A stretch of 64,000 bases of DNA, the filler included, from Stramenopiles sp. TOSAG23-6 (Eukaryota): the NCBI GenBank assembly GCA_900128565.1. It is 11 parts of 11 records of this genome, joined end to end, with 100 filler letters (N's around TTAATTAATTAA, not from the genome) between each part and the next. Parts side by side here need not be neighbours in the genome. Positions count along the whole stretch, not along the records: positions 1 to 5,783 come from LT636836.1; positions 5,884 to 11,664 come from LT636837.1; positions 11,765 to 17,545 come from LT636838.1; positions 17,646 to 23,422 come from LT636839.1; positions 23,523 to 29,291 come from LT636840.1; positions 29,392 to 35,159 come from LT636841.1; positions 35,260 to 41,026 come from LT636842.1; positions 41,127 to 46,889 come from LT636843.1; 3 more parts are not named here. One strand, 5' to 3'. Below, piece after piece: positions 1 through 58,647 of this stretch. The position numbers were made by a program, and so were the translations under genes. The notes under the pieces are model-generated. The model was not told where the DNA came from and made no database searches. It saw nothing but the letters and a program-made list of their open reading frames with translations. Within the stretch, counting starts at the first letter, position 1. The number at the start of each line of letters is the position of its first letter.

Positions 1-57
1 TTTGTACCTAACAAATTTTTTTAGATTTTTTTTTTGAAATATTTTTTCAAAATACTT

Positions 58-1739
58 GCTGATTGCTGCGGTAGGTCAAGATAACTTTGGAGACAATTTA
101 AAGAATTCGTGTATTTCCCTAGGCATGCCGGAATTTGGAATTATTTCTTCAAATACTCCAAATTGTTCCACTGCAATATATAATATATGTTTTTTATCAT
201 TCATTTTTTTTGTTTATTTTTACAATGAAAATTTTGTAGCTTTGAGTTTTTTCACTCTAAAAAAAACAACTCCTGACCTTACTAGTTTATACAACAAAAA
301 AATATTTTTTCACAGTACATGCTACACTTGATGACAAAGGAGAGTTAGTGACTGCAATAGCTGATATGTATGTTTTATTTTTTTTTTGTATGAATTTTTT
401 TTTTATAAAAATTTTGTACCTAACAAATTTCAGTTTTTTTTTTTTGAAATATTTTTCCAAAATACATGCAGGTCCTAGAAACGTTGAGCAGTTCAGACAT
501 CAGATCGTTTGAATCTTCCATTAAAGCATCTAGTATATACGTTTTCCATTATTTTCAATTTTATTTTTTTTTGTTTTTACTATGAAAATTTGACTCATAA
601 CAAATTAAAAAATATTTTGAAATATTTTTCAATATACATTGTCGTTTTAGATGGAAATTTATCAAGAAATACGATGCAAGAATTATTCACAATTTGTGTT
701 GAAGACGAATCTGATAAAACAAAATCTGATAAAACAAAATCGGATATTCGAAATATGGGAAATATGGGAAATAAACCTTTGATTTGGTTTGAATCTACAT
801 CTGTACCAAAGGCACACCGTGTGCGTTTTCAAAATGTTTTGTTATGTTTTTGTTTTTTGTTTCGTAGTACATTTTGCATCTAATGATTTTTTTTATTATC
901 CAAAAAAAAAAAAATATTTTTCACAATATTTGCAGTGTCTAATGGGTTATTGTCTTGTCGACAACTTACATACTTATCTCCTAATGTTGAAGAATTGTAT
1001 GTTTTTTTTTTCAATTTTTTGTCTAAATATTTTTTTCGTACGAAATTTTGTACCTAACAAATTTCAGTTTTTTTTTTGAAATATTTTTCCAAAATACATG
1101 TGTATGCTTTTATCATTCATTTCAATTTTGTTTTGTAGTACATATAGTATCTAACAAACAAATCAAATTTCTAAAATACTTTTTCATAATATATGTTCCA
1201 TTGTGGATGCAATTCATAATCGCGATATTGATGCAAAAACAGATTACAAAAATGTCACTGAAGACGACATTATTAATTTAGCAGCTACAGTCATAAAAAA
1301 TATGAAAGTAGGAGAAGGTAAAGCAAAATTCAAACATATTATAGTGACAAGAGGATCAAAAGGAGTTTTTATAGTATCAGCAAAACCAACTATTGTACGT
1401 TTTAACCCTTGATTTTTTTCACCTTAATTTTTAACTTTTTTTGTTTTTCATACGAAATTTCGTACCTAACGATTTTTTTTTAAATATTTTTTCACAATAC
1501 TTGATTCTGTCACGAATGAAGTTTTGAAAGTACATAAAATATCTCCACAAACTATTGCGAAAGATATAGTTAATTGTACGGGTGCAGGTGATACTTTAGC
1601 TGGTGCAACTGTTTATATGCTTGCAAATGGTAATAAATTGTATGAGAGTGTTGAATTTGGTATGAGAGCTGCAAGTTTGAGTATCTTCTCAGAAGAAGCT
1701 GTTTCACCAGATATTTCACAAAAAAGACTTTTAAATTAA
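58..1739 (+). CDS. PfkB-family carbohydrate/pseudouridine kinase domain, 5'-truncated, multi-exon (inferred exons 58-184, 321-367, 468-536, 640-820, 932-996, 1100-1101, 1195-1394, 1503-1739)
   Basis: Spliced translation gives IAAVGQDNFG, YNATLDDKGELVTAIADM, IVVLDGNL, WFESTSVPKA, YLSPNVEEL, IIVTRGSKGV and the PfkB signature VNCTGAGDTLAGA. Confidence 0.85.
368..467 (+). other. Non-canonical GT...AT intron of the repeated family
   Basis: The join GAT AT|G CAG restores ADMQVLE; using the nearby CAG (471) gives an immediate TAG stop; contains TTTTGTACCTAAC. Confidence 0.8.
1395..1502 (+). other. Non-canonical GT...TT intron; upstream exon also ends in TT
   Basis: The join ACT ATT|GAT TCT keeps frame into the PfkB C-terminus; the next two downstream AGs give a stop or the wrong frame. 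Confidence 0.75.
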
Positions 1740-1851
1740 ATCGAACATAATATTATAAAAATCGTTGAAAAATTTTGTTTAAAGAAAATGTATGTAACAG
1801 AAAGTACCACGGCCGGGAATCGAACCCGGGGAAAATGTTTAGATTAAAATC

Positions 1852-1923
1852 TACCACGACCGGGAATCGAACCCGGGGCATTCGCTTGGGAAGCGAATAT
1901 GATTACCACTACACCACCGCGGT
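1852..1923 (-). tRNA. tRNA-Gly (CCC)
   Basis: Cloverleaf with acceptor ACCGCGG/TCGTGGT, D-arm GTGTAGTGGTAATCAT, anticodon arm TTCGC-TTCCCAA-GCGAA and T-arm CCGGG-TTCGATT-CCCGG. Confidence 0.9.
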
Positions 1924-2061: not shown

Positions 2062-4364
2062 TTATTTTGAAAAATTTAAATATCTGTTATTTTTTAGAGA
2101 TTCCATTGACTTTGAGATATCTGGTTGAAATGTACAAGATTTCATTTGAATTTGACGTGCATCTTCTGCACGTTTATCTAGTAATATTCCAATACTTTCT
2201 TGTGAGGGTGATAGGCGTTCTGACCAATGTTGCTTTTCTTTGTGACTTATACCATTTTGTTTCGTTCTATTTGTGTTTTTACAAAGCTTGGCTTTCTCGC
2301 GTTTTATTGTATGATTTGTTTTTGGACTAAATATATTTTGAGAAAATATGTCAAATTTAATTTTTTTGTTAGGCACAAAATTTTCTAAAAATAATNAATN
2401 TTTTTTTTNAANTTNAAAAAAAATAAATTTAAATACAACATACATGTACAAACTTCTGCCATTTTTACTTCATATTGATCTAATATTTTCTGCCTTTTAG
2501 CAGCTATAGCAAGGGATCGTTGCTCACCATGCTGATGTAATCGATGACCAAAAGGACTAATTTTGCGAGTCGAACTTCCTTCCCTTTGTTCAATTTGTTC
2601 AAGAATCTTTCTAGATTTAGGAGAAGTCTTTGGATGTGCAGCCATACATCGTAATTTGTGTAATTTATCTTCAATTCTTTTAGATTCTTCGAGCCGTGAT
2701 TGTTTTGCGTCTGCTTCTATGTAAAGCCGTCGTGAAACAGAATGAGCCTTTTCATATCTACACTTCGCCAGGCATTTTGAAATTGCAAGAACCAATAAAC
2801 TTTTTTGTTTCAAAGGACTAGTCTTATAATTTTTACACAACATATTTAATGATACGCGAAAGTCTTCCTTAGACTGATTCATTATCGAAGAATCAAACAT
2901 GCTTGTCTTTATTGATTTATTACGATCCTGGATAGTTTTAAAATCTTTGCACAATTGACTTATTTTTATTGTGTTTGTTTTTGTTTTTCTACTTTTTTCA
3001 AGTTTTTGTACAAAATCTTTTTCTATTTTGTTGAATGTATTGACACCCAATAATAATTTCATGTACTCATCCTTTTCATGAATAGAATTTAAACCATTTG
3101 AGTATTTCAATATAGCTAATAATGCATTCCGCTTCCGAGCGTAAGTACCTCTAAATAATGATTGTATCTTTAGAGCTGCATTTTTATGCTTTCGAGCAAA
3201 AATACTTCTACAGAATGATTGTAATTTTATAGCAGCCTTTGACTTTGATTGTAATTTTATAGCAGCCTTTGACTTTGATTTTTGTACTTTTAAATATTGT
3301 ATAGCAGCCTTTCTTTGCTTGAGTCTAAGACATTTTTCTTTTTGCGCTTTTTTATATTTCATCAGCTGTTGTCTCTTATGCTCCTCAGCTAAGAGTTTAT
3401 ACTGTTTCCTTGCATTGATGCCTCTAAATAATGACTGTAACACAATCAGCTGTTTTCTCTTATGTCTCTTATGCTCCTCAGCTAAGAGTGTATACTGTTT
3501 CCTTGCATTAATACCTCTAAATAATGACTGTAACACAACAAATCCACGTATACGACGCTGAATTTCTAATCTATGCTTTTGAGCTGCTTCCAATATCAAG
3601 CGTCTTTTTCGTTTTTCAACCATGATTTTTCGTGAGCGTTTTCTCGCCATAGACTGGATTATAGTAGCACTATTATTTCGGTGTTTTTCCATCTTCAATT
3701 TTAATTTTTCATCAACTTCTTTTGCTTTTGAAGTGGCAGAAGCAATGAATATTTCTCCAAACTCACGATTTTGTAATTTTCCAGATAAAACTTGCTCAAG
3801 AATAGTTTTTTCAAACCAAGTGAAAAAAACATGAAATGAAACGCGACTGTCATTGTCATAACATAACTTCTTATTCTTATCTTGTAGTTCAAGCTTAAAC
3901 TTTTCTTTTCCACTAAAAATCGTCTTCATATTTATTACTATCTTTTTTGTTAATTTTTGGATATCTTCTCTAGATAACGTTCCTATATGTTCTCTGTCCA
4001 AACCATCGAAAAGAAAGCGAATGTGTTTCTTAATGTCGTTTATACAAGTTGGATATTCCCGAGTGAACCACTCAAAAAACTCTGGAAAAGTCACACCAAT
4101 TTTATTTCTTTCCCCAATGTTGGAAAATAAAGTGTCAATATTATTCTTGCTCCTCAAAATTTTTGTTCTTTTCCTCTTTCTTGGATTACGACCCATTTGA
4201 GTCACTAGGGAATGTATATCTTCTTTATTAAGCAAAGTCTTTGATTTTCCTGTTGTTTTATACTGCAGAAGATGAAATATACGTTTAGCACGAATTTCTC
4301 GCTTACAAGGTGAAATTTGGAGTTTCGTAGACGCACTAGAGCTCTTTGTAACACACCCAGACAT
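2062..4364 (-). CDS. EF-hand-like and IQ-motif (calmodulin-binding) protein; GT...AT intron at 2331-2443
   Basis: Repeated LQSLFRGxxAR IQ motifs; EF-hand-like FDGLDREHIGTLSREDI; splicing restores CTFSPK, matching the downstream CTFQP motif. Confidence 0.75.
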
Positions 4365-4671: not shown

Positions 4672-5737
4672 ATGACAGTCAAGTGTGAAAGCAAATTGAA
4701 ACCGGAAGCTGAAAATGATGACTTACAGTTGAGGAAAGAGGATATAGAAATGGAAAATACTCGTAATTCTGTTGATGCAAAAAATACAGATGCTTCGTGT
4801 TACATTTGTCACGAGGGTAGCAACGGGGGAAAACTAGATAGAGGCTGTGCATGCCGTGGAAGTTCGGGATTTGTCCACATCTCGTGTATTCTTGAGGCAG
4901 CAAAATATAATGCTAGTATGTGGACGCGTTGCACTATTTGTCACCAGAGGTACACAGGCCATCTCAATCTTAAGCTAGCACAAGAATACTATACAATGGT
5001 CTCCGAACCTAATAACCCTGATAGAGCTAAATACCCATCCATCGTTACTATATACGAAACCGAAGGAGGACCCGAAAGTTGTATTGCGAGTGCTGCAACG
5101 GATGTAGCAGGAGCTCTTTATCAATTAGGTTCCTCCGAGGAGGCTTTACCTTTGTTGGAACAAGCGCACGAATTTTACACAAATTTTCCAAATAAATCTC
5201 ATAAAACAAATATGCTCCAGTGTCTGCAACGTAAAATTCTAGTACTGATGGATTTGAATTTATACGAACGCGCATCTGAAGTTGCAAAAAATATAGATCT
5301 AACTGAACCCATTGATGATTCTGTACTCAGTACAATTGGATGTTTGTATTTGTATGCTGTCCGCTTTAATTTTTAATTTATTATCTTTGCTATGAAAATT
5401 TTGTACCTAACGAATTTAAAAAAAAATATTTTTCACAATACGTGCGACTTGATGAGCTTGAAAAAGCGACAGAGGTCTTTGAAAAATTGTTTGCAAAAAC
5501 TACAGATACTGTACATTTTCATAACAATTTTCAAATTTATTTTTTTTATAGAAAATTCCTCTTTGACGATTTTTTTTTCTCAAAATATTTTTTCACAACA
5601 CCTGAATTTTCCTTAGTTTTGGCTAATAATTTAGCGCAATGTTACTACAGGACAAATAAATTCGGAAAGGCACTCGCTTTATTGGAGAATTCATTCGTAC
5701 AATCTAAAAGATTTCTTGGCGAGTTTCATCACAGTAC
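4672..5737 (+). CDS. RING-CH (RINGv) zinc finger plus TPR protein, 3'-truncated; introns ~5352-5443 and 5511-5603
   Basis: CYIC..GCACRGSSGFVHISC..W..CTIC motif followed by TPR-like helices (LANNLAQCY). Confidence 0.8.
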
Positions 5738-5783
5738 ATGCTACACTTGATGACAAAGGAGAGTTAGTGACTGCAATAGCTGA

Positions 5784-12837: not shown

Positions 12838-15032
12838 TTAATTGTTAGAAGTGCGTCCACTCTTTTTCGCCTGTTGAGGCGACACTTCAGGTGAAAAAGA
12901 AGATACACTTTCATATCTTTGATTCTTTCTTGTAGAAACCATCTCAATATTTCGAAAACTATTCTGTTTTAAACCAAGACTTTGAGACCTACGTCTAGAT
13001 ATTTTTGGATCTACATTGGTACCATTGGTATCCTCTATATTTACATGGATGTCTTGTTCTATTTTGTACATACTAATGGGACTACCGGCCACATCTAAAT
13101 CTCGTGTCAGTGGCTCGGCCATGGGTTTATTTCTATTAAATATGTACAAAACCATAAAAATTGCACAACTTAATAAAGCAAGGGAAAGTGTCAGAATAAT
13201 TAAAACATACTCTAATGTGAAATTCCCTTCATCGTAACGGACTAAATAAATATTTTGAACGTCTACTACCACATTTATCTTGTGCGGTACACTCCCATAC
13301 GTACTGGCATTACATATTGTGAAAAAATATTCTTTTACTAAAAATGTTAGGTACAAAATTTCGTATGAAAAAAACATTCAGATAAAAATTCACGATGAAA
13401 AACAAACACCTTTGATTAAATTCGGATCACCCGTCGGGCCAGGCCCACCAGCATTATAAACTGTCCCTATCAATTCAAGTTCACGAATATCTTCTATTGC
13501 AAATCTTTCACCGATTATAATTATATCGATATAATGATCATAATCACCGACATAACAATTATCTGTCTTATGTATTTTAGAAAAATATTTCAAAAAAAAA
13601 TCGTTAGGTACAAAATTACGTACGAAAAATAATTCGAATTTGAAAAAAATAAAACATACATGTGTGATGTCAGGATTCTTACCTAGATCTGCAAGACCAA
13701 GAACCTGTAAGTAGAAAAATATTATTTCTGTAAAATTTGTTAGGTACACAATTGCATATGAAAACAAAAAATAAATCAAAAATTTAATGTGAAAAAATAC
13801 TGTCATTGTTGTCATTGACGATGCCTTATATACCTCATTTGCCTTTGTCATTTCTTTCTTAACTCCTTCTGTTATATACCAAATTTTGAAATATTTCTCG
13901 TAATCGATTGGTTGAATTGCGTTAATTCCATCTGCAGTCACACCGGAATCAAACATTACACGAAGCCGATATATGGGAGTTCCCGATTGGATTGAAGATA
14001 AAGTATATGAACTTCCGGAATTGGGAATATACGCATTGTCATATCGGGACTCTCTGAATTCCTTGCGCAGAGCATGTATTTTGGAAAAATATTTGAAAAA
14101 AAAATCGTTAGGTACGAAATTGCGTACGAAAAAAACATTCGAATTTGAAAAAAAATAAAACATACATCCCACTCACGAATCCCCTCCCCATCCAACGTCG
14201 CACTTAGAAGATTAACCTTGGCAGCAATCATTTTGGGCCCGCCAGTGGACGAATAAGGGCTATTTTTACCGTTTTGGTCCATTGTTAGTTCCAAGCCAAC
14301 TGCACTGATTAATATATTCCCAGGTCCAACAAGTTGTAGTGGAGAAATCTCTTCTTCATCTTGAATAACTTTCACTTTTACTGGGTATTTTGCTCCTGAT
14401 TTTGATGGATCAATGTTGTTAAGAATAGGCCCCGCGGCTAAAAGACAATGTCTTTCATTATACTCAGACCCAGGAAAAAGTGAAACTGAATGTATAAGAA
14501 CGTTTGAACCGTCATTTAGTGTAAAGAGCAAGTCACCACCATGAGATGCAGTAGACATTAAAACGGGATATGAAAAACACACTGGAACAACAGCAGTTTT
14601 CGTCGATGTTTTGCCAAATGCACGATACATGATAGATGGTGGCTCCTTCGAAGTTTTGGTCATCTCTTTTGGTTCTTCCCCATTTGTACAAGTTTTTTTA
14701 TCAATATAAGCAACGCCCGCCTCTAGTGCAGCTTTTTTACCAGATTCGATACCCATAATCCCAGAATAACCACAACTAGCTGATAGAATACTTGGTTCAA
14801 TCTTATAGTTAGCAGGATCATTAGCATTAGGCCACACATCTGCGTTATACACTATACCAGTCATAATTTCATCATGTATGGAAGTATCGTACACGAAATA
14901 AACAGCAAGCGATCCACCAACTAGAACAGCTACAACCAGAAGCATTAAGCATACAAGCCATGTTTTATCTCGGTTACTCTTAATACCTTTGAATTGTTTA
15001 AAGCATTTGCACTCTTTACAGCATTGGCTCAT
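12838..15032 (-). CDS. Hypothetical membrane-anchored protein, 5 exons (introns 14074-14165, 13705-13800, 13570-13659, 13312-13407)
   Basis: N- and C-terminal TM segments; frames join after removing the family introns. Confidence 0.7.
13705..13800 (-). other. GT...AG member of the same intron family, supporting the splice register
   Basis: GTATTTTTTC...TGTACCTAAC...TTACAG|GTT; AG occupies the NN slot after TAC. Confidence 0.85.
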
Positions 15033-15416: not shown

Positions 15417-16699
15417 TTACTTCGTACTACCGTTTGGAGGATTAGAAGATGCTATATTATATATCAAGGTACGCGCCATTTTGAGACACAAGCGAATGCA
15501 ATAATTATTCTTTTGTGTATCCATGTAACCAGCATTCGCTGTCATGCCTCCTGCTGGGTTAGGGTCATTTTCATCTGCCATATTCGAGTTACTGGAAGAG
15601 TCACCGTGTTGTGTTTTACATACATAATTAGTACAGAAATATTTACATTCCAAATTTGTTAGATACAAAATTTTCTTAGTAAAAAAAATGAAAATAAAAA
15701 TCTGAAATCAATGATGAAAACGCACACGAAAGCATTCCCTAGTTGGTTGATAACCACCTCCGCTCATTTGAGCAAGTGACGCTTGAACAGATATTATTTT
15801 TGCTTTGATTGCATCATCTGTAGGCGAATCCTTCAACCGTTTTTGAAGGTCAATAAGCTCATCTTTTAATTTGCCAATATCTTCATCAAGTTTTCCATCG
15901 TTAGATTGTCCCGTGTATTTTATGGAGTCTACTACTGTATTGTGAAAAATATTCTTTTTTAGTTGAAAATTTCATTACATAAAAAACTTTAAAAAATTAA
16001 ATTTAAAAAAAATTGAAATTCATAATAAAACGTAAAAGAAATTCATATGAAAAACATACAGGCCTTAAATTTCTGCACATTTGCAAGACTCAGTCGAATT
16101 TTATTCTTATCTTCCTCACTTGGATTATTTCCGATATCCTCAATCAATTTTTCGTGATTACTTTCCGCAAACCTCAGCTTTGACGTTGCTTTCGAGAGAT
16201 CTTCGTCTGATGAATTCGAACCCACCGCTTTTTGAAGTGCTATCACTTTATCATTGTATAAAGCCTGATCAAGTTTGAGCTGTACTTGCAATTTGGTATC
16301 CGATGGATTTTTGTCGAGTGCCTCTTGAGTAGTTTTCATTGCTGCCTGTGCTTTGGAAACGTTATCCGCTGCTGCGAGAGCTTCTGCTCCAGTAGCCATG
16401 GATTGCATTATTTCCCCCGAACGTACGAATCCACAACTGGTCGTGCACTTGACTTCAAAATCACCTTTGTTAATTTGGTCTGATGTTGCGGCAAATGGTG
16501 GTATTGCTGGTGGCTTTGTTGGTTCAGATGCATGGCTTTTTGCTCGCTGAAAAAGTTGGAGTCTAGACGATTCTTCCAAGAGTGAAGTTACTCCAAGTTT
16601 ATTTGATGCATCCAATAACTTTACTGGATCGATGTGTATTACGTTTTCAGCCTTTGCAAGACATGCTAGAATGAAAATAGATAATATGCTTATATTCAT
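15417..16699 (-). CDS. Secreted coiled-coil hypothetical protein (introns 15935-16059 and ~15624-15725)
   Basis: Signal-peptide-like MNISILSIFILACLAKA; spliced frames are continuous. Confidence 0.65.
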
Positions 16700-18421: not shown

Positions 18422-19493
18422 TTATTCCTCCTCGTTCTTTACAGTGAAATCAACACATGCTTCAATGCCCATACTTTGCATAATCATACACGAAATCATT
18501 TTCCCATCTTTTAACTCCTCAAATGCTTTTATAAGTTTTTCTGAGGTTTCATTATATTCACCAGTACTAGTCTTTGACAAACTCACATCCGATTTTTCAA
18601 CCGCAGCATGTATTTTGGAAAAATATTTCAAAAAAAATCTAAAAAAATTCGTTAGGTACAAAATTTCGTACGAAAAAAAAAAATCGATTTTTTTGTAAAA
18701 AAAAAAATAAAAACATACATCGTTCGTAAGATGAAGGGTGCCTGGTTGAGAGTACGAACCGTCCATATCGAGGTCAATTAATCGCCACTCCGTTTTGTTT
18801 AGGTTTGGAGCAGTCATATCATATGACAAAATATTTGAAGAGTCATTTAAAATTCGTTAGGTACAAACTATAGGAATTAGATTTTAAAAACAAAAAAAAA
18901 AAAAGTGAAAAAAAAAAAGTGAATTGTTTTTGTTAGGTACAAAATTTACTACGAAAAAAAAAATGTGACACTTACATGTTATGAGAGGTTGGACTGACAT
19001 CTTGATACTTATGCCCTGTAAAAATATCAATACCAGTGATCTTTGCTTTTGCATGGCCATGCTTTCCGGTCTTGGATACAGTAACTTCAATAACTTTGCA
19101 GGGATGGTCCTTGAGTAGAACGTGGCCGCCCTTCTTAACTTCACCAGCGCGGATAGGGTAAGTCAAGGAAGCTCCATCTTCAGTTTTTTCAATAGTAAGG
19201 TCTTGGACTTGTGCAGCAAGTCTTTCTGAAGCGGTCTCACTACCTGAATTTCCGGTTTGTGCGACCGCGCCATCACCAGCGTCTATGAGTTCCAATTTGC
19301 GATCTGCTGGTTTGAAAGTTTCTTTACGAATTCTTTGTTTGGAATCTTCGTCTTCACCTAAGTCAATACCAGTTAGTTTGACCTTTAAGCCTTTCTTTCC
19401 TTCTTCTTTAAGAATATTTGTAATTTTCAGTTCACGTCGACCAACTTTTACGGTCATTCCTAGCACAACATCATTGTAAGTAATAGAGACCAT
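18422..19493 (-). CDS. eIF5A: Translation factor eIF5A with N-terminal extension (introns 18816-18975 and 18608-18718)
   Basis: Hypusine motif SKTGKHGHAK, ITGIDIFTG, PTSHNM|TAPN and QSMGIEAC. Confidence 0.93.
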
Positions 19494-22041: not shown

Positions 22042-22357
22042 CTTGGTGTAAAAACTAAGTTTGTCTTTTACAGTGGTTATTGATATTTTTTCTTAGGTAC
22101 AAAATTTCGTACGAAAACAAATATTGATATAGTTATTGATATAGTTATTGATATAATTATTGATATAGCTTGGTGTTGTTTTGATGAATATTTTATTATT
22201 ATCAAAATTTTGTTTTAATATAAAGTCAAAAATTAGTTTTAAAACATATAACAAAAAGAAAAATCAATACAATTTATTCAAAACGAAAAAAAGGTACATT
22301 TAGAAAAAATCAATACATTTTATTCAAAACGAAAAAAAGGTACATTTATAACCCTAA

Positions 22358-35311: not shown

Positions 35312-36448
35312 CATGGTCTAGGGGAAATTGTGTCAATCCATAAAACATCATTTCATCATTTTCACTTGATGATTTAGTTACATTCTTAGTTTTTTCTTTT
35401 GAAAGGAATAAATTTGTACTATTATTTGAAGCATTCAATGTATTTATAGAATTATGTTTGACATGATTGAAGACATTACTATTGATTACGTGTGAAAATG
35501 CGCGACAAATCGACTCTAAAAAAGTACTGTGAATTAATATTTCAAAACAAAACTTTTTTGTTTAGGTATACAATTTTCATAATAAAAAAAAAATCTAAAA
35601 TTATATTTTTCGTGTTTGAAAACGTACATGGTACAAATACCGACTGAATATGTCGAAATCTCTTGAAATCCTTTCGAATTCTCTCTGGAAATTCAAGTGT
35701 ACAGTGTTTCAAATCCTTTTCGCGTGGCTTTTTATTGGATCCAACATTTCTTGTGAAATTTTGGATTACTTTTTGAATATGTGGCAGGAAATTTTCAAAG
35801 TCATTTTGTAGTTGTTTCCGTTCCAAATTATTCAAATCGCGTTGCTTTAAATCATCTAAAATATCAAGATTTCCCTCCCAATGGTGGTGCAAACATTTCA
35901 TCAGTTGAACAAACTCTTCCTCGGAGATTGAATCAGATTTATCTATATCAAATAAATGTATTTTGGAAAAATATACTTTTTTTTTACGGAAAAAAAATTT
36001 GTTAGGTACAAAATTTCGTATGAAAAAAAAAATCGAAATTCAATTTTGAAAACGTACATGATATACGTTTGATGCATCCTTGGACAAACCAGCTAATGTA
36101 TCATCATTATCAGAACGAAGAGGCGTTATCACAGAACCAACAGAACCAAATCTTGCTGAATATGGACAAGAAAGACTTAGATTAATTATTTGTCCATGAT
36201 CATTATTACCTTGTAAAGCTTTCACAAATACAAAAAATTCATTTCGGTCCAAAACGAAATCACTATTAGTGTCCAATATATGAAAATTATCACGAGAGTC
36301 TTGTTGTTGTTGTTGTTGTTGTTGTTGATTTTGTTGATTTTGTTGTTGTTGTTGTTGATTTTGTTGTTGTTGTTGTTGTTGATTTTGTTGATTTTGTTGT
36401 TTGTTGTTGTTTTTGTTGTTGATTTTGTTGTTGATTTTGTTGTTGATT

Positions 36449-36482
<34 letters not shown>

Positions 36483-40405: not shown

Positions 40406-40972
40406 CTATTTTTTATCATTATGAGCTGAGCTACTAGGAATCACGGGAGAAAATAATGTTAAGCCAGAGGATCCACAGCGTCGTAATTTACCATGCATTT
40501 TGGAAAAATATTTCAAAAAAAAAAATATTTTTTTCGTTAGGTACAAAATTTCGTATGAAAAAAAAATCCGATTTTTCTGTAAAAAAAAAATGAAACATAC
40601 ACGCAAAGTTTGATTTGAGACACTAGTAACAATTACACAGTAATTTCCCCAGCCTTCAGGTACTGGTGTAGCTGCACAAGCACCACCTAAACGTACGATT
40701 GAATCAGCTGGAAATTTTTCATCAATTTCCCACAACTCATGTATTTTGGAACAATATTTCAAAAAAAAAATTTGAAAATTTGTTAGGTACAATCGATTTT
40801 TTTTTTACCGGAAAAAAAAAATAAATAAAAAACATACAAAAACTATATCTGGCCATTCCCAACCTGTTTTTTCATCAAGTCTTGCAATTTCATCAGTTCT
40901 ATGAAATGCTGAGACTAACCACTCAGGTCGGGGATCAACAAACGTTGGAAACAACACGAAAACATGGACAGT
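40406..40972 (-). CDS. Hypothetical protein, 3' exons (5'-truncated)
   Basis: Three open exons separated by family introns. Confidence 0.5.
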
Positions 40973-41180
40973 ATGTATTTTGGAAAAATATTTCAAAAAA
41001 AAAATCGTTAGGTACAAAATTTCGTANNNNNNNNNNNNNNNNNNNNNNNNNNNNNNNNNNNNNNNNNNNNTTAATTAATTAANNNNNNNNNNNNNNNNNN
41101 NNNNNNNNNNNNNNNNNNNNNNNNNNTTTGTACCTAACAATTTTTTTAGATTTTTTTTGAAATATTTTTCCAAAATACAT

Positions 41181-43068
41181 GCTAATTGCGAGCTCACATT
41201 TATGGATATTGGTAATATTCATGTAATGCGAAATTCTCTTTCTGAGTTTTGTAAAGTTTTACAAGCCGAAAGAGTAGAAGAAAAAGAAAAAGTGAGATCG
41301 AATAGAATCCATATGAGAAAAATGTATGTTTTATTTTATTTTTTTTTCGATTTTGAATTTTTTTTTCGTACGAAATTTTGTACCTAACAATTTTTTTTAG
41401 ATTTTTTTTTTGAAATATTTTTACAAAATACATTCAAATAGAACAATGGAGAAAATTAAATTTTGATAAATTGAATGATACGTTGAAAAAATCAGGCTTT
41501 GGTGATTGGGAACTTGTCAGAGACTCTGATATGTTACGTAGTTCATTAGGTATAGAATATAGTACGAAAAAAAATAGAAAACCTGAAAAAAATAGTAAGG
41601 AAAATAATAATTCTAAGTCTAATTCGAAAGATGAAAATACAAAATCAAAATTGAAGGATTTTTCGTGTCCTAATGAGAACAAACATCCTAATTTTAATGT
41701 AAAAGATGAAAATAGAAAAAATATTTCAAAGTTGACAAGGAACCCTAGCCCTAATTTCTACTATTATAGTAATAATGTGACTCCGTCGTCTAGTTCGTTG
41801 TGTGAGGCTGATGTATGTTTTATTTCTTTTTCAAATTCTATTTTTTTTTCATACGAAATTTTGTACCTAACGTTTTTTTTTTCAAATATTTTTCCAAAAT
41901 ACATTATCAGAGATCTCAACGCTGTCGTTTAGGTATTTCTCGTAGTGGTTGGCTTGTACATATTTGTAAAGTTTTGGAGGCTGCATCGTTTACTGCAAGA
42001 AAAATGGATTTATCTCAGCAGTCTGTTTTAATTCATTGTAGCGATGGTTGGGACAGAACTGCTCAAATTTGTGCTCTTACCCAACTTCTCCTAGATCCAT
42101 ATTACAGAACATTTCAAGGGTTTCAAGTATTAATAGCTAAAGAATGGCTCTCATTTGGTCATAAATTCAAGGATCGGTGTGGTATGGGAGATACGTTTTC
42201 ATCATGATTTTTGTTTTTATAGTTAATTTTGTACCTAACGAATGTTTTTACTAACAAAAAAAAAAAAAAAATATTTTTCACAATATATATCCCAGTAAAT
42301 CTGGAGAAGTGTCTCCCGTTTTTATCCAATTTTGTGATTGTGTATTCCAATTACAAACACAATTCCCATCAGCATTTGAATTCAACTCGAAACTATTAAT
42401 AGCACTTGCAGATTTCGCCCACTCATGTACATTTTCATCATTTCAATTTTTTATCTACAATGTTTTTTCGTACGAAATTTTGTACTTAACAAAAAAAAAA
42501 AAAAAAAAAATATTTTTCACAAAATATCTTGGTTTGGTAATTTTTTAGGAAATTGTGAAAGAGAGAGATTTTTAGAATTACGTGTCCGAGAACAAACTTT
42601 TAGTGTTTGGGATTATTTTGATGTCAATCGTAAGCAATTTATTAATTTAGGATATATCAAGGAGCTTAAGGGTCTTTTAGTGTTACTTCCAGCAACGACA
42701 CCGATGTTCGTTTTCATCATGAATTTCAAATTTATGTTTTTTTTTTCGTAGGAAATTTTGTACCTAACGATTTTTAAAAATATTTTTTCACAATACAGGA
42801 GCATTCGAATCTGGTCAGAGTATTATTGTCGTGATGTCACTCATCGCAGTGGTGTAGATATGTTATATAGAGATAGTAGAGATCACGAGCTTATATATGA
42901 TCATTCAGCACATGTACGTTTTCAAAATTGAATTTTTTACCTACATTTTTTTGCGTAGTAAATTTTGTACCTAATGAATTTTTAATCAAAAAAAAAAAAG
43001 AAAAATATTTTTTCACAATACATATATTACACGATAGAAATGCGTCTGCTATTCGATATAAATCATGA
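41181..43068 (+). CDS. MTMR: Myotubularin-family phosphoinositide 3-phosphatase, 5'-truncated (introns 41324-41433, 41813-41904, 42191-42288, 42427-42527, 42706-42798, 42914-43023)
   Basis: IGNIHVMRNS, active site HCSDGWDRTAQ, KEWLSFGHKF, SPVFIQF, FPSAFEFN and FGNFLGNCERER. Confidence 0.93.
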
Positions 43069-43834: not shown

Positions 43835-46803
43835 ATGTACTTCGTTTATCTGTTTCTATCAGTGCTAATAATACCTGTACATGGTGTAATGAACAAAGGT
43901 GGAGTGCCTTACAAAATTTCAAACGCTCTAGGAGATGGCTACTCCACAGACTTTGAAAAGAACCAGCTACATGGAAAAGTTGAACACTTTGATGTTTATG
44001 GAGAAGTGAGAACAAACTACAGCCAGATATATTGGACTCGAAATAACGAGATTAATTTACCATCTGCAATTGTAGAACGCTTCAAGGACAAGGTCATGGT
44101 AATAACAGGATACGAAATTGACCAAGTCATTCATCCTGGAGAAGAAGAAGGTTCAACAACAGTTGGTGAGTCTCTGGGTGGATTTTCATGTTACCCGGAT
44201 TGTAGTGAAGGTGATGTATCTGTACCTATATATAATGCATATAATCATCATTACTTTTCATGGCTTGTGGGTAGCGATGCTGAAGTCTACGCCAAAAAGA
44301 AGCTTACGGAAATTCCAAATCCAACAAAAAACCGGAGTCCGAAAAATACCTGGTACACGTGACCATGGCTACCCTACAAACATTGTGTTCAAAGAAAACC
44401 CTGGTGGAGAGTATCGTAAATCTTATCATGGATATCCAAGTGGATATGGTCAATTAATTTTCTCTCCAGATAGATGGATTGTAGAGCCAATGCAAATGTA
44501 TGCTTTATTTTTTTTCAATTTCGATTTTTTTTTTCGTACGAAATTTTGTACCTAACAATTTTTAGTTTTTTTTTTTAATATTTTTCCAAAACACATAGAC
44601 ACACATAATCGAAATTATAACATTACTGAACAAGTTGGTTATATACCGTGGTTTCTTCCTCAACGGCAAAGTAATAAAACCATCACAGAATTAGATAATT
44701 TAATGTCGCCATTGATTGAATGTATGTTTTATTTTTTTTCAAATTCGAAATTGTTTTTTCGTACGAAATTTTGTACCTAACAATTTTTTTTAGAATTTTT
44801 TAATATTTTTCCAAAATACATGTCCTTGTTCTGATAGAATAACAAAACGTCAAGAGCAATCATCTCAAATACTTACACGTGGTGTTTGTATGTTTTCATC
44901 ATGAATTTCAAATTTATTTATTTTTTTTTTTTGGATTTTTTTTTTTTTTTTTGAAATGTATGTTTTCATTTGAATTTGTTTTATGTATGAAAATTGTATA
45001 CCAAACAAATTTCAAAATTTGACATACTTTTCCAAAATACATGTAGTACAACAATAGATTCATTCAATGAGTGTGTATCAGCAGCCAAAGCAACAGGTGC
45101 GGTTATTACATCAAGTTCTAAAGTATCTGATTCAACAAAACCATATGGATGCTTAATATCACCAAATAAATCTAATTCTAGAGTCATGGTGAATATTAAA
45201 GGTGAAGATTTCAGTGACAAACAAATGGAATATGCAGTTTTTTTCAATACAGCAAAGAAGTCGTCAAACATGTGTGGAAGTCAATCAAAATCACTTTCAC
45301 TTGAAGGAAACGGAAGTTTTCTAAATGATGCCGTATCTATATCTATACAGCATGATGGAGTTACTGCTCGTATTACCATGACAGGTCCAGATAAAGTTTG
45401 GTTTGGTGTGGGATTTGGGGCAACGGCGATGAAAGATTTGCCATATTCAATTATCATTGATGGCATCGGAAATATTACTGAAAGAAAACTTGGAAACCAT
45501 GAATGTTTTATTTTTTTTTCAATTTCGAATTTTGTTTTCGTACGAAAATTTGTACCTAACGATTTTTTTTCAAAATATTTTTTCATAATCCATGACCCTG
45601 GAACCATTTTGAAGTCATCTATTACAGTTGTATCAAACACAGTGACTGGCGGAACCCGTACAGTTGTGATGACAAGATTAGTCACTGGAAAAATACCGGA
45701 CTATTATAATATCCCAAAAGTCCCAGGCAAAATTAATGTGATTACAGCAATTGGAGCAACATCTACATTTTCATACCATGCGCATAGAACTGGTGCTTCA
45801 CTGGTGCTCTTGCCCATGAGTGTTCCTGCATGTATTTGTAAACCGACATCAACATCCTATTTAACATATATGGAAAATACTGCATTACAAAGCACTTCGG
45901 AATTTTACTATGATTGCGTTGATGAGCCAAGATCTGATATGCTACGACATGGTGATGGCACAGGAAGAAATGTACCAAATGCAGCATGTAATATGGAAAC
46001 ATATCATGTATGTTTTATTTTTTTTCAATTTTTTTTTTGTAATTTTGTTTTTGTACGAAATTTTGTACCTAACAAATTTTATTTTTTTTTTTTTGAAATA
46101 TTTTTCCAAAATACATGGGGGATTGAAATGTTGCGAGCATTCGTGGTATCTTACTGATAAAGAACAAGAAAGTCGAATTCCAAAAAATATGCAAGATAAA
46201 TACTTTTTGAAATGGAGGTATTATTTCCAGGAGTATACACCAGCAACAACAGATGGTTCGATTGTAACAATGCCTTCTCATTTACATTTAAAACATTTTG
46301 TATTTTTGATTGATGCAAGTGTCAACGATTACGAAGAAGATAATGCACATGTACGTTTTCAAAATTGAATTTCAAATTTATCTTTTTTTCATACGAAATT
46401 CCGTACCTAACGAATTTTGACTACATTTTTTTTTCACAATACAGTATGGTCATAAAAGTATTGGTAAAATTACGGCACATCTAAAAGCAAAAGATTTGGG
46501 ACTTGACGGAAGTGTTGATAACACTTATACTAAAATCCTACCCTTTGTTATGACTCCTCATTGTGTATTTTGAATTTTTTAACAAACAATTCTATAATAA
46601 TGTTTTTTTGTTTTGGTTTTCATACGAAATTTTGTACCTAACAAAAAAAAAATAATGTATCCTTTTGATTACAATTGAATTCATTATTATTACATTTTGA
46701 CGTATTATACATACTATATCATGCACCAAGCTGTATACGAGAAGAAATATGGAATGCAGATACAAATAAAATTCTTTGTAATGTAACGGCATTGTATGGG
46801 GAT
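43835..46803 (+). CDS. Secreted multi-domain protein with a DOMON-like domain and His-rich motifs, multi-exon; +1 frameshift in an A-run near 44328
   Basis: Signal peptide; YNHHYF, WFGVGFGATAM, FSYHAHR and PHCHAPSC. Confidence 0.7.
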
Positions 46804-46990
46804 GTATGTTTTATTGTTTTTCAAATTCGATTTTTTTTTTCGTACGAAATTTTGTACCTAACGTTTTTTTTTTCAAATATTTTTCCAAANNNNNNNNNNN
46901 NNNNNNNNNNNNNNNNNNNNNNNNNNNNNNNNNTTAATTAATTAANNNNNNNNNNNNNNNNNNNNNNNNNNNNNNNNNNNNNNNNNNNNT

Positions 46991-51541: not shown

Positions 51542-52682
51542 TCAACTATCAAATGGGTTCGGTGCATCTCCAACATTTTCATATCTTTCTGAAGTTTTTT
51601 CTGAATTATTATCATTAGACATCAAATCCATCATATAAGGATTGTATAGGTTAGGTGGGGATAATTTTTCTTCACTACTACTTTTACTCAAATTTGGAAT
51701 TTCAATAAGTTTTCCACTCGTGCTTTCAATAGAAGAGTTGGAACTTTGCAAAACAATGCTCCCCGTAATACTGTTTGAAAGAGGATTTTCTCTAGTCATT
51801 TGCTCATCTGTAGGTAATTCTGTAGAATTAAATCCACTTTTCATTTGCTCATCTGTAGGTAATTCTGTAGAATTAAATCCAGTAGTTGTTTTATTTATTG
51901 ATGCTTCTTCTGATTGTGATTTAGATTGATTCTGAGTAGAGTCTTTTGATGCTTCTTCTGGTTGTGATTTAGATTGATTCTGAGTAGAGTCTTTTGATGC
52001 TATTGCACTATATACAGGATTTTGTAGAGGTGGAAGATCTTCTGAAACACACTGTTTAAATAAGCAAGCTGTACCCGAGAAAAATTGTAACTGACAAGCT
52101 TTAAATCCAGAAAAAGGTTTCTTAAGCATATATTGTGAAAAATATTTTTTTTTTTTTTTCCGTAAAAAAAATAAAAAAAAATCGTTAGGTACAAAATTTT
52201 CATAGTAAAAAAAATTAAAATTCATTATGAAAATGTACATTTCTTCTTTGGAAAGATGAACTTTTCTTAGCTTAACATTTACTATTTCAGTTTTCTTCTC
52301 AAGTATCCTTGTACAATCTTTAATTTCTTGGATTTTATCAGCAATATCTTGTGGGGTAAATTTACTAGAGCCTGGAATTTCAGTCATACGTTCTGTGAAA
52401 AAATATGTTCAAAAAAAAAAAAACTAAAATTTGTTAGGTACGAAATTTCGTATGAAAAAATATAAATTTGAAATTATAATGAAAACGTACAAGTTCTGTT
52501 CTTTCTGGGTCTAGAAAAGACTCCATAATTAAAAGTTCATTTCTCAATTGTGTTTGTTGTCTCCTCGTTGCAGAGTATTCAATAAGTTTTTGTCTCATTT
52601 CACTAATTTTTAAGATACTTTTTTCTATCGGGATGTAAACTCGTTGAGTAAGAAGTGAATCTAATTGTCCACGGGTAGTACA
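51542..52682 (-). CDS. Hypothetical protein, 3' exons with internal repeats (5'-truncated)
   Basis: Exons join across family introns; duplicated ASKDSTQNQSKSQ and GFNSTELPTDEQM. Confidence 0.55.
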
Positions 52683-55131: not shown

Positions 55132-57314
55132 TTTATGTAGCCTGTGTGCTTTGATCACTCGAACCTTTTATTATTGAACCCGCGCGGGGTTAGGGTTAGG
55201 GTATATCTTTTAGGAATTCACAGAGAACAAAAAAATTAAACGACGCTGACTCTTTTTTTTGGATTTCAAAAAATCTTCAAAATCCGGCTTTCGCTTTTCG
55301 ACATTTGAAATTTAATGTCAAAAATACAAAGATTCGTTTTAAATTTTTTTATCATCACGAATGCCTTCATGTTTTAATTAGTCGGAGTATAATTTCGTTA
55401 TAATGCCATCATCTTCAGATGAAGAGACTGATTTATTTCCCATTCCAGGAACTACTCCACAAAGACGACCGTCTCTTTTGATACTCCACAAAGACGACCG
55501 TCTCTTTTGATACGTGCAGTATCACGTGCTCGCCCAGTTTTACTTCGTGCAGCTTCAATGAGTCGAATCCATTTTTGTCTCTAGCTACGGGTAGAGTCTT
55601 TTTAACTACATAAAAAAAGTTGAAAATAAAAAAAACTAGATTGGAAAGTGTAATTTTTATATAATTTATTAAAAAGCTTTAATAATCGTTAATAATTTTA
55701 TTAATTTATCTACAATTCCATTTTTGAATTGTTGACCATTTTTGAATTGTTGAAATTTCGTCTAGTCAAAATTTTGTTAGGTACAAAATTGTCTATGAAA
55801 AAAACACCCCAAAAAAAACAATTCAAAACAACATTGATGTTTTTCATATACAGCGAAAAGAGCACAGTAGAATACAAATAAAAAATCTAAAAAAAATTGT
55901 TAGGTACAAAATTTCGTACAAAAAAAAAAAAAAGTATTCAAATCATGGTCAGACCGTCGAAAAACACCCTGGCTAAAGAATGTATCGAGCCTCTGTTTTA
56001 GATCATAGTCGATCATATGGGGAAAGAAGCACTAAGTTGTCATCAATCCATAAGAAGAATACTTGATAGTTTTCACTTGTTTTAAAACTTGTTTTAAAAC
56101 TTGTTTTTATACAAGTTTGTTTGAAACAAATGAGAAAAAAAAATGAGAAAAAAAAATGAGAAAAAAAAATGAGAAAAAACTGCTCAATTTTAAAAAGCTC
56201 TAATATTTTTTTCATACAGTCGAAACCAACGATCAATAGCGGTTTGTTACGCCGCAATATGTCTTCTCATTGCAGCAAAACCTTCAAAAAAAAAAAAAAG
56301 GGNGAAAGAAGAAAAAGAAAATGACACGTGTGCANTNTTTTAGGTATGAAAAAATGGTAGAAATGTGTACTACATTGTGTGGCTTCAGAAGGAAGGCAGA
56401 ATAAATATTCCATCATTTTGGACACCTAACATGGGTCTCGGACAATTCCAAACATCATTGCCAATAATCACACTTGAAGTCAATGTCAATGTAGAGAATA
56501 ACTACACTCAAACACTTGACAAACAAGAAAAATTCAATGAAATAAAACTCAATTTGGGATAGTTTGTTTTTACACACGAAGAAGGAAAGCATGATTGAAT
56601 AATGATAATAGTCCTCGGAGATCTTGGTGATCATCTAATCGTCATCCATGAAGTCATGAGTAGCAAATATAGTCGTCTTCATCGGTACTATGTCATTATT
56701 TACAACGCGTTCAACACGCTCATGAAACAAAAAAGAGAAAAAAATAATGCTTAAAGGAGAAGCGCACAAAACGCTGTACTCTCCAGAAGAATCGAACTTC
56801 TAGAGAGTACAGCGTTATACGCATTTCTATAGTAAATAAACAGATATATACTTGACTTGCAATAGGTAAAAACAATTGATTCTATATGTTACCCAGTGCG
56901 ATACAAACTCAAGACTGTCGAACGACGACAACGACGACGAGAACGAGACAAAATAAATGACTCGTGACTTGACTCGTGGTGCACTGACTCTCAGGGCCAA
57001 AACCCTAACCCTAATTAATTCCCATAAAATCGATTAATGAAAATATATGACGACGCGACGACGGTTACTTTCATCTCGAATTTTGATTTTGATAAAATTT
57101 CTTTCACCGGATATGTTTTAGATCTCCTCTATTGATTGATATTCTTTGCATTTTTTACACTTATTTGAGTTAATCAGAGCCAAACTGTAACCAAAAGACT
57201 TTGTAGTACATTGTAACTTTGAATATCACTACCAAAAATAAACAAAACTCATCAATTTTTGAATACAAAAGGTAACGTTTTTCTACAATAATCATTTATT
57301 TTTGATTATTGGTC

Positions 57315-58445
57315 ATGAATAATACAGATAATACTGGTGAGAATGAATTCGAAGTATCTCTTCCGTCAAACAAACATAGGAATAATCGAGTTCATGTAAG
57401 TCGGCGTGGAAGTGTATCAATAGGCAATACAAAAATATATACACCGATATCAAAACAATCTAATTTAATCCAAGAAAATTTGAGTTCTAAATACTCTAAA
57501 GAATCTAAAGAATCTAAACAATTTGAACAATTTAAACAATCATCAACAACAGAGATATCTTTAGACAGTGACAATCGAACAAGTAGACTTACGCAACAAT
57601 TGGATCTACACCTAAATCTAATTGGGAAAAAAGGAGAAAACAACGGAAGTAGACGTGACTCTGAAAGCGATATCAATGAACTTGAGAAATGTTTGGAAAT
57701 ATCCGAAAGTCATGTTGAAACAATGCAAAAACACTATGCATCAGTATTACAAAGAAATGTCCATTTACAACACTCTTTAGAAGAAATATTACAAGAAAAT
57801 ACGACTTTGCTATCGGATAAAAATAAATTGGAAGCTTTATATAGTAATGTACAAACTAATTATGTCGCATTGCGCCAACAGTTTAACATTACAGAACAAG
57901 ATTATTTAAAAAGTGTCGATTTCAATCAAACACAGCAGAAGATGAAGACAGACTTGATCATAAAACATAAAAATTTAGAAGAAAAATATTATCATTTATC
58001 AGATAAATTTACTTCACTACAATCTCGTCTCGACACAGAGGAAGCAATACATAAGGAAAAATATGAAATTTTATCAAAAACAGAGATAAAAGCTCAAGAA
58101 CAAGTTCAAAAGTACAAAACTGAACTGTCTGAATTACAAAAATGTTATGAAAATGTGGTAAAAAATCGGGTGGAAGAAAATTCTACAACAAGGCATCTTT
58201 CTGAATTACTTCAATCCTCAAAGTATATGTTTTAGTTTTTTTCAATTTTTTGTCTAAATTTTTTTTCGTACGACATTTTGTACCTAACAATTTTTTATAA
58301 TTTTTTTTTGAAATATTTTTTTACAATATATATACTATTTTAAAATATCAAGGCATTGAACGATTGAACTGTACACTTTCAAACTGGAGACATCGGAGAC
58401 TGTCATCCAGTTTTCATACTTGGCGGACTCTCATTCACAAAGAAT
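57315..58445 (+). CDS. Coiled-coil hypothetical protein (AT...AT intron 58225-58331; 3'-truncated)
   Basis: Long heptad-rich ORF; splice gives SKYTILKYQG. Confidence 0.65.
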
Positions 58446-58647
58446 GTACGTTTGTTTCGTTTACAATTTTGTACCAAACAAAAATAACAAAAAGCCTAAA
58501 CTTTACAATTTTTTTTTTTTTTTTTTTTTTTTTGAAACTAATAAAAANNNNNNNNNNNNNNNNNNNNNNNNNNNNNNNNNNNNNNNNNNNNTTAATTAAT
58601 TAANNNNNNNNNNNNNNNNNNNNNNNNNNNNNNNNNNNNNNNNNNNN

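Follow-up and report, generated by a model that had tools for sequence, protein, structure and literature searches.

A repeated family of apparent introns ending mostly without AG in conserved genes of a draft genome labelled Stramenopiles sp. TOSAG23-6

How can conserved genes be expressed when they are interrupted, many times over, by short, mutually similar inserts most of which do not end in AG? The question is raised by a stretch of 64,000 nucleotides (nt), hereafter the window, from the draft genome of Stramenopiles sp. TOSAG23-6 (GCA_900128565.1). The window is made of 11 contigs of about 5.8 kb, ordered by length and joined by N44-TTAATTAATTAA-N44 linkers, so that sequences facing each other across a linker do not adjoin in the genome; the DNA beyond the contig with the PLK gene, for instance, is not PLK. 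A first-pass annotation had described the inserts as an abundant family of introns whose 3' splice site does not need AG. This observation is confirmed here, and the family probably consists of introner-type introns that stem from one short non-autonomous transposon-like element, each being spliced out together with the downstream copy of a target-site duplication.

The family is readily delimited by two motifs. The core motif AAATTTTGTACCTAAC is found 70 times with at most three mismatches, against a mean of 3.06 (maximum 10) in 100 shuffles, and the 3' box 53 times where 2.81 matches are expected. A hand count, with three probable chance matches removed and inserts carrying several motifs counted once, leaves about 60 distinct inserts, so that the family announced by the first-pass annotation stands whereas its size of about 65-70 inserts is slightly reduced. 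Members lie in the sense direction within coding regions on all 10 eukaryotic contigs. Their median length is 101 nt (range 90-136) and they follow a common plan, in which a dinucleotide slot (NN) precedes GTAYGTTTT, a variable T-rich part, CGTACGAAATTTTGTACCTAAC, a T-run and the 3' box AAATATTTTTYCAMAATAY, followed by a second NN slot. Alignment of 32 complete copies from at least 12 genes separates two subfamilies that differ in their 5' half. Pairwise identity among the aligned copies has a median of 0.73 and a maximum of 0.91; the copies are not young. Identity is higher in the 5' end (0.918, consensus GTATGTTTT), the core (0.916), the 3' box (0.880) and the last two bases (0.891) than in the other occupied columns (0.712), which is the pattern that selection on splicing signals would give. 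As also seen earlier, many contigs break within the family: 14, and possibly 15, of the 20 eukaryotic contig ends fall inside an element, usually at the core motif, which fits a very high copy number in the genome.

Reading frames across the inserts follow one simple rule. When the element and two further nucleotides are deleted, at least 40 codons stay open on both sides in 25 of 40 elements, compared with 8 of 40 when the element alone is deleted and 3 of 40 when one nucleotide is added. The boundaries used in this test came from a crude pattern, and several of the misses correspond to ill-set boundaries. All 13 intervals named in the first-pass annotation carry the termini given there, and once their flanks are joined, 35 codons or more stay open on either side in every one of the 13. 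Of 43 elements compared after deletion, 41 give a sense frame exceeding the longest antisense frame, in agreement with the sense orientation already reported for inserts in conserved genes.

This strand bias bears on the idea that nothing is removed from RNA, the inserts being either excised from DNA in the manner of the internal eliminated sequences of ciliates or mere insertions of miniature inverted-repeat transposable elements (MITEs) in dead genes. The eliminated sequences of Paramecium are short and AT-rich, with a 2-nt flanking repeat of which one copy remains, and the inserts resemble them in each of these traits; moreover, the named matches of the PLK protein include ciliates. Excision from DNA, however, has no reason to follow the coding strand, and the bias towards sense thus makes it unlikely. 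Neither does it agree with the flanking repeat, which is AT rather than TA, nor with the TTAGGG repeats present interstitially in the window, since the telomere repeats of ciliates differ from this sequence. Dead genes are no better suited, as about 60 insertions in conserved and otherwise intact genes restore the frame by a single rule. Both readings were rejected on the strand bias, and together they are considered highly improbable.

Five genes allow the joins to be confirmed at the residue level by homologs. In PLK, GTPNY and IAPE are split by 100 nt in the window, while GTPNY[IML]APE is uninterrupted in 119 of 120 PLK matches. In eIF5A, SHNM is joined to TAP and TND to AAVEK; at the first of these sites, nine homologs read SHNM-TAP/TSP or SHNM-EAP. 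In the gene of an MTMR6-like phosphatase, GMGD is joined to PSKSGEV, the insert at 42191-42288 being flanked by residues 301-387 and 391-437 of a solved MTMR6 chain. A pfkB kinase gene shows the joins of AIYN to ATLDD and of AIAD to M, as well as the frame holding SPNVEEL. Finally, a secreted-type protein requires the joins of GNH to DPG, where five homologs each show a gap of exactly 31 codons, and of TYH to GGL; open reading frames from ENA contigs (40-85% identical), in which DNA and cDNA were not told apart, are uninterrupted at both sites (45501-45593 and 46008-46116). Reading frames and protein homology together argue strongly for splicing of the inserts. Two relatives of this last gene (43836-46889), the open reading frames P0257 and P0258 from environmental contigs, run into (TG)n-like sequence right past FLKWR, at a place where the window has no intron, and are unbroken at the intron sites of the window; such relatives seem to have other introns at other places.

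Where do these apparent introns end? Among 35 curated copies, the first two bases are GT in 28, AT in six and GA in one, and the last two are AT in 26, AG in four, and TT, CT, AC and GT in one each, the remaining copy (821-931) being read as TT by eye. The AG that closes U2-type introns is therefore found in 4 of 35 copies. In the nine non-AG intervals of the first-pass annotation, no AG occurs within the last 12 nt of the intron and the first 3 nt of the exon. Conventional GT-AG introns using an internal AG were tried as an explanation: 14 of 34 copies contain an AG downstream of the last CTAAY and before the 3' end, but its use keeps the frame in only one of these 14, and in the copies of eIF5A and of the secreted-type protein it would add residues that are found in no homolog. 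As nearby AGs fail to rescue the frame, this conventional escape, which the first-pass annotation had itself named as the outcome that would overturn its view, does not hold. The data support the conclusion that most inserts cannot end in AG in any register. The final slot is nevertheless biased rather than fully free as first proposed, position -2 being A in 31 of 35 copies.

The slot itself has a simple origin. In 23 of the 35 copies, the dinucleotide that follows AATAY is the same as the one that precedes GTAYG, and the four copies with a downstream pair other than AT or AG are all among these 23, with flanks TT/TT, CT/CT, AC/AC and GT/GT. The NN slot is a 2-nt target-site duplication in which AT is preferred, and this duplication, a hallmark of transposon-type insertion, explains why the slot varies; the inserts are probably introner or MITE-type introns. 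The earlier interpretation, right in substance about 3' sites other than AG, is thus partly supported, having missed the transposon origin, the duplication and the ambiguity of register that the duplication brings. Indeed, because the flanks are repeated, 23 of the 35 copies can be written as GT...AT, TG...CA or AT...AC with the same mRNA, a choice that neither protein nor cDNA can decide, and the termini listed at first for such copies are therefore present but not unique, a GT-AT being equally an AT-AC.

A second spliceosomal reading exploits this ambiguity. The intron would start at the upstream duplicate, mostly AT, and end in ...AATAY, giving AT-AC in 14 and AT-AT in 6 of 34 copies, with YAY as the last three bases. 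Both registers yield the same mRNA in the 23 copies with repeated flanks. The YAY end recalls the introns of the larvacean Fritillaria borealis, which end almost always in YAY with AT and AC as their commonest 3' pairs. Moreover, in four copies with unequal flanks, the A at upstream position -2 is replaced by G, which would make GT at the start of such an intron. This register would, however, require a cut 2 nt ahead of a perfect GTATGT. In three of the copies whose flanks differ, only a cut directly before GTAYG keeps the residue of the homologs, namely the D of the G-x-G-D motif in the MTMR6-like protein and, from comparison with pfkB homologs, the R before 821 and the L before 997. Besides, all four AG copies carry their AG in the NN slot, as had been noticed at first, and this makes sense only if the slot is intronic. 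Owing to these three residues and to the AG copies, the GT...(AT) register is preferred as the one probably used, and the alternative register is held to be unlikely.

The copies whose boundaries were examined are listed below in the GT...(AT) register, first those on the plus strand and then those on the minus strand.

185..320, plus strand: intron of the pfkB-type kinase gene, AT..AT, flanks AT/AT; homolog P0327 is gapless where AIYN meets ATLDD
368..467, plus strand: family intron, GT..AT (or AT..AC), flanks AT/AT; homologs show AIADM over the join
821..931, plus strand: family intron, GT..TT; the frame of the next exon, with SPNVEEL, is fixed by homologs
997..1197, plus strand: two adjacent copies, exact joins not placed; a conserved L stands ahead of the first copy and speaks for a cut directly before GTATG
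1395..1502, plus strand: family intron, GT..TT (or TT..AC), flanks TT/TT; 50 codons open on both sides
5511..5603, plus strand: family intron, GT..CT, flanks CT/CT
20408..20540, plus strand: intron of an Aa_trans (SLC38-like) gene, AT..AT; two branch motifs and CCCTAAACCCTAA
29553..29662, plus strand: family intron, AT..AC, flanks AC/AC
33396..33520, plus strand: family intron, GT..AT; contains TTAGGGTTAGGG
33893..34000, plus strand: family intron, GT..AT
41324..41433, plus strand: family intron, GT..AT
41813..41904, plus strand: intron of the MTMR6-like gene, GT..AT; the next exon corresponds to positions 196-290 of the Myotub-related profile
42191..42288, plus strand: intron of the MTMR6-like gene, AT..AT, unequal flanks AG/AT; D-to-D alignment favours a GT..AT-type register
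42706..42798, plus strand: family intron, GT..AG, flanks AT/AG
42914..43023, plus strand: family copy in the last part of the MTMR6-like gene, with an uncertain join; 18 codons open with element plus 2 nt, 47 with an internal AG
44498..44596, plus strand: family intron, GT..AT
44722..44821, plus strand: family intron, GT..AT
45501..45593, plus strand: intron of the secreted-type protein gene, GA..AT (or AT..CC); five homologs, 31-codon gap, GNH to DPG
46008..46116, plus strand: intron of the secreted-type protein gene, GT..AT; P0251, P0253, P0255, P0258 and P0259 read from TYH to GGL unbroken
46351..46444, plus strand: family intron, GT..AG, flanks AT/AG
58225..58331, plus strand: family intron, AT..AT, flanks GT/AT
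2331..2443, minus strand: family intron, GT..AT
13312..13407, minus strand: family intron, GT..GT (or GT..AT), flanks GT/GT
13570..13659, minus strand: family intron, GT..AT
13705..13800, minus strand: family intron, GT..AG
14074..14165, minus strand: family intron, GT..AT
15935..16059, minus strand: family intron, GT..AG
18608..18718, minus strand: intron of the eIF5A gene, GT..AT
18816..18975, minus strand: intron 1 of the eIF5A gene, GTAAGT..AT, two branch motifs; no AG nearby; the window needs SHNM joined to TAP
22845..22945, minus strand: family intron, GT..AT, flanks GT/AT
23064..23164, minus strand: family intron, GT..AT, flanks AC/AT
23197..23309, minus strand: family intron, GT..AT, flanks GT/AT
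23751..23850, minus strand: intron of the PLK gene, AT..AT; AG nowhere near the 3' end
35956..36057, minus strand: family intron, GT..AT
40493..40600, minus strand: family intron, GT..AT, flanks GT/AT
40739..40837, minus strand: family intron, GT..AT, flanks TT/AT
52128..52238, minus strand: family intron, GT..AT

For the copy at 821..931, a reading as TG..AG, shifted by 1 nt, is possible, and PDB searches with both candidate exon frames at this site returned no match.

What machinery would remove such introns? In the mechanism proposed, the element would bring its own splicing signals: the 5' splice site GTAYGT, right at its start; the branch-type motif TTTGTACCTAAC, strong and with CTAAC as its core, at 31-57 nt from the 3' end; a U-rich tract; and the 3' box. 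Insertion would create a 2-bp target-site duplication, mostly AT, and splicing of the pre-mRNA would take out the element with the downstream duplicate, bringing back the reading frame as it was before insertion. The last two intron bases would then be whatever the target was, that is mostly AT and sometimes TT, CT, AC or GT, a minority of the 3' pairs having since mutated to AG. As the terminal pair would be dictated by the target site, the machinery would have to place the 3' cut by position, 2 nt past the 3' box and with at most a preference for A at -2, AG not being recognised as such.

The other signals are of a familiar type. GTATGT and the branch motif, also written TACCTAAC, are close to the yeast-type 5' and branch consensus of U2-type introns. 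Accordingly, a GT 5' end with extension is found in 28 of 35 copies, and CTAAY, a form of the YTRAY branch motif, in 32 of 35, at 31-57 nt (median 41.5 nt) before the 3' end and followed by T-runs as a pyrimidine tract. Since the 5' site and the candidate branch motif look conventional, only the choice of the 3' site would be altered.

A transformed minor-type system, U12-like as in Physarum polycephalum, is a serious rival to this U2-like reading, although a low probability is given to it. It would combine an RTAY 5' site, a rigid extended branch or 3' motif, a cut set by distance from that motif with a free terminal dinucleotide, and a spread by DNA transposons with a 2-bp duplication. The family introns begin with G in 28 or with A in 6 of 35 copies, and the last base does not change accordingly. 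In Physarum, GT-AT and AT-AT rank among the most frequent non-canonical pairs of U12-type introns; a transposon that makes a TA duplication was proposed as their source, along with co-evolution of the U12 small nuclear RNA (snRNA). The 5' end of the family equals the U12 motif RTATCCTT(T) at 7 of 9 positions, CCTAAC resembles CCTTRAC, and the 3' box has A-runs 7-10 nt from the cut. Nevertheless, the consensus here is RTAYGTTTT instead of the U12-type RTATCCTT, and in place of TTCCTTRAC near the 3' end the family has GTACCTAAC at its median distance of 41.5 nt, with a CTAAC farther from the 3' end than is usual for U12-type introns. A long U-tract is present, and the 5' end is identical to the yeast U2-type consensus GTATGT. 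Family members, moreover, make up nearly all introns of the window, whereas in every known genome, that of Physarum included, minor introns are outnumbered.

A third possibility dispenses with the spliceosome. As in the introns of euglenids, pairing of the intron ends would bring the junctions together, and the cut would be made at a fixed offset by an unspecified activity. In its favour, the junctions carry short direct repeats, and a 6-bp pairing of the ends is seen for the commoner subfamily (3 of 8 folds); comparable traits have been reported from euglenids, hemistasiid diplonemids and Amoebophrya. This pairing, however, goes no further than 6 bp and is absent from the second subfamily, 7 of 8 folds are no more stable than shuffles, and the best conserved blocks of the family are a spliceosome-type 5' site, a branch motif and a U-tract. 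In view of such weak pairing, structure-driven excision is not favoured, and it is regarded as very unlikely.

Several points weigh against the preferred reading, in which introner-type introns are spliced out with the downstream duplicate. Flanks are unequal in 12 of the 35 copies, and in 8 of these 12 AT stands downstream with another pair upstream, which simple duplication leaves unexplained. Each of the three cases that favour this register rests on one residue, and the boundaries of the frame test were partly curated by eye. One intron, in the region of 42427-42527, does not fit the rule of element plus 2 nt, and its join was left unplaced. No protein at least 90% identical to those of the window was found in protein databases except its own open reading frame, that is, no transcript product of the same species. 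As regards a transposon, the sole candidate for a terminal inverted repeat is ATGTAT/ATACAT with the flanks included; the corresponding terminal 6-bp helix, likewise including the flanks, is absent from the GTACG subfamily. Fold z-scores range from -0.24 to -3.20, with only one of eight folds beating all its shuffles. Finally, no autonomous partner element was seen.

Truncated or degenerate copies occur outside clear coding sequence, so that the element is not confined to exons.

22092-22107, minus strand: truncated or degenerate copy
28176-28191, plus strand: truncated or degenerate copy
46627-46642, plus strand: truncated or degenerate copy
55776-55914, minus strand: truncated or degenerate copy

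Composite inserts also occur: two copies side by side with 2 nt between them, an inverted fragment in nested position, and others in which the branch motif or the 5' end is doubled. It seems that elements insert into or beside one another, and the pair at 997-1197 would need stepwise splicing.

997-1197, plus strand: composite insert
22607-22735, minus strand: composite insert
20408-20540 and 21308-21475, plus strand: composite inserts
44880-45042, plus strand: composite insert

At 34583-34650 on the plus strand, a partial antisense element (core and 3' box in reverse complement) is read in frame within the plus-strand open reading frame 34277-34837, apparently as an antisense insertion that has been exonised. 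At the end of contig 1, the final 55 nt (5729-5783) repeat 311-364, which comprise an element 3' end and the next pfkB exon at the start of the same contig; this may be a chimera of assembly or amplification, or a duplication.

Searches for the element elsewhere gave little. Exact matches numbered zero in JGI metagenome contigs and one in GTDB genomes, in a metagenome-assembled genome of Bacteroidales, where one 20-mer in 596 Gb is about the chance level by our own estimate. In viral contigs, 28 single 16-mer matches were taken as chance, and a search for related loci with an exon of gene B yielded no relative.

To which organism does the family belong? The ten first pieces of the window are eukaryotic and AT-rich (GC 0.22-0.42 per 2 kb). 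The last contig (58648-64000) is bacterial-like, with LpxK and a GDSL lipase, a GC content of 0.41-0.45 and no element, and the assembly is therefore mixed or contaminated. The best named relatives of eIF5A are from bicosoecids, cryptophytes and alveolates, two leucine-rich repeat (LRR) proteins carry the LRRNT_2 domain of plant and protist type, and no animal is among the best named protein matches except for one tick PLK at 45% identity. Judging from its proteins, which are protist-like rather than tunicate, the host is probably a marine protist and not a relative of Fritillaria; Fritillaria or its kin as host is unlikely. A eupelagonemid diplonemid, a heterotrophic stramenopile and an alveolate were considered as candidates, with no choice made among them. 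Words sampled from 41127-46889 were present at 0.05-0.14 in each of seven seawater metatranscriptome runs from three studies, a result that counts as evidence neither of expression nor of habitat. A search with Rfam found only one tRNA-Gly in the window, and neither an snRNA nor a splicing-factor gene lies within it.

Other features of the window were noted in passing. The eIF5A gene (18975-19493, minus strand) has an N-terminal extension of about 100 residues, common to proteins of 250-290 residues from marine metagenomes and transcriptomes. At 1801-1845 and 1852-1923 (minus strand), a gene of tRNA-Gly(CCC) adjoins a fragment in which the GGGAATCGAACCCGGGG part of this tRNA recurs. In the secreted-type protein gene, the frame shifts at an A6 run at about 44320-44345 (plus strand) with no intron signals nearby, probably through an indel in the draft. 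The motif TTAGGGTTAGGG, allowing at most one mismatch, occurs 18 times where 0.12 occurrences are expected. Its copies are mostly intergenic and near gene starts or stops, for instance about 45 nt past the stop codon of eIF5A, in the space between divergently oriented genes, or ahead of the gene for the secreted-type protein. A few copies are found within elements. The motif may act in promoters or terminators, or may be left over from telomerase healing.

TTAGGGTTAGGG positions: 16848, 18375, 19616, 21102, 24852, 31714, 33417, 41743, 43554, 43594, 53077, 53346, 55190, 57003

In practice, gene prediction based on GT-AG introns will fail on this genome. Because one element appears with differing terminal dinucleotides in a single genome, the choice of a 3' site without AG could be tested with minigenes and, if the cut is indeed set as by a ruler, the AT, TT, CT, AC and GT duplicates would amount to a natural mutagenesis series of the 3' splice site. 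The family could likewise be set against the U2AF duplication described in Fritillaria. Should RNA data confirm the joins, it would provide a further, apparently independent link between invasion by transposon-derived introns and a spliceosome freed from AG. A broader scenario is put forward as a tentative possibility only: a non-tunicate, protist-like marine lineage would have arrived independently at near-complete AG-independent splicing, essentially its whole intron complement coming from one introner family with a ruler-set 3' cut 2 nt past the 3' box whatever the dinucleotide, possibly through one transformed spliceosome of U12-like tolerance.

Earlier publications have established the principle in Fritillaria borealis, Amoebophrya, hemistasiid diplonemids and the U12-type introns of Physarum, and the family looks like a new, unusually clean case of transposon-derived introns with 3' sites other than AG. 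A literature search, blind to subscription papers and supplements, found no paper describing it. The non-canonical, MITE-derived introns of the larvacean Fritillaria borealis were reportedly described by Henriet et al. 2019. In this species, 95% of introns are non-GT/AG, with AG/AC and AG/AT as main classes, a YAY 3' end (AT 34%, AC 28%), a duplicated U2AF, no minor spliceosome and changes in snRNA N6-methyladenosine (Soo et al. 2026, PMC13326754). They possess terminal inverted repeats and target-site duplications, an exonic TAC giving rise to the 3' site (2024 Mobile DNA review, PMC11282704). As in the present family, Fritillaria introns are similar to one another, mostly non-GT/AG and accompanied by target-site duplications, one exonic duplicate preceding the intron and the other forming the 3' splice site, with an ambiguity of borders that needs a rule to be resolved. 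Fritillaria introns also carry inverted repeats, for which the family has one candidate. Their AG 5' end and 3-nt YAY (TAC) repeat, however, contrast with a canonical-looking GTAYGT, a 2-nt repeat that is mostly AT, and a strong CTAAC. In the family, the 5' end is GTAYG, no YAY stands upstream, and a 3' YAY appears only in the alternative register. The hosts differ as well, one being a larvacean and the other looking like a protist, with its extended eIF5A and LRRNT_2 LRR proteins.

Introner element families were reportedly the subject of Huff 2016 and Gozashti et al. 2022. Such transposon-derived intron families are known in Micromonas, Aureococcus, dinoflagellates and many other organisms (PMC12130899, PMC11282704). 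Both they and the present family consist of many similar introns across unrelated genes, the element supplying the splice signals and the target-site duplication letting splicing restore the original sequence; introner hosts are typically aquatic. Classical introner families nevertheless use GT-AG, whereas the present one is mostly non-AG. Mainly non-canonical families were retained in the survey of Gozashti et al. 2025 (PMC12130899) only after manual checks of transcript or RNA-seq alignments, and an unannotated draft genome such as the present one would therefore not have been surveyed.

More than 60% of the introns of Amoebophrya (Syndiniales) are non-canonical, and no minor spliceosome was found there (Farhat et al. 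2021, PMC7789003). Its repeated introns carry inverted repeats and short direct repeats overlapping the junctions, and junction repeats likewise accompany the family. Those of Amoebophrya are, however, direct repeats of 3-5 nt with inverted repeats of 8-20 nt and no common terminal signature, whereas the window is dominated by a single family in which GTAYGT, CTAAC and the 3' box are fixed and the ends pair weakly.

Single-cell genomes of eupelagonemids were reportedly presented by Gawryluk et al. 2016. Non-canonical introns have been predicted from such genomes without transcript data and, should the host be among those single-cell genomes, the finding is already known. In hemistasiid diplonemids, about 97% of splice sites are non-canonical, with GC-rich pairing ends (Thakur et al. 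2025, PMC12621601). Euglenids and diplonemids share with the family the absence of GT-AG from most introns, a suggested MITE origin and their place among marine protists. Hemistasiid introns, however, show YTRAY in few cases (2.4-6.8%) and pair extensively, whereas those of the family are AT-rich and weakly paired, with CTAAY in 32 of 35 copies.

Finally, a mass gain of U12-type introns took place in Physarum polycephalum (Larue, Elias and Roy, bioRxiv 10.1101/2020.10.12.336362). The RTAT 5' end, the GT-AT and AT-AT pairs and a proposed transposon origin with a 2-bp duplication are common to Physarum and the family. In Physarum, RTATCYTT is kept and the branch motif lies 9-12 nt from the 3' end, whereas CTAAC lies at 31-57 nt in the family; non-canonical ends account for 0.8% of introns in the former but for 31 of 35 curated copies, about 89%, in the latter.

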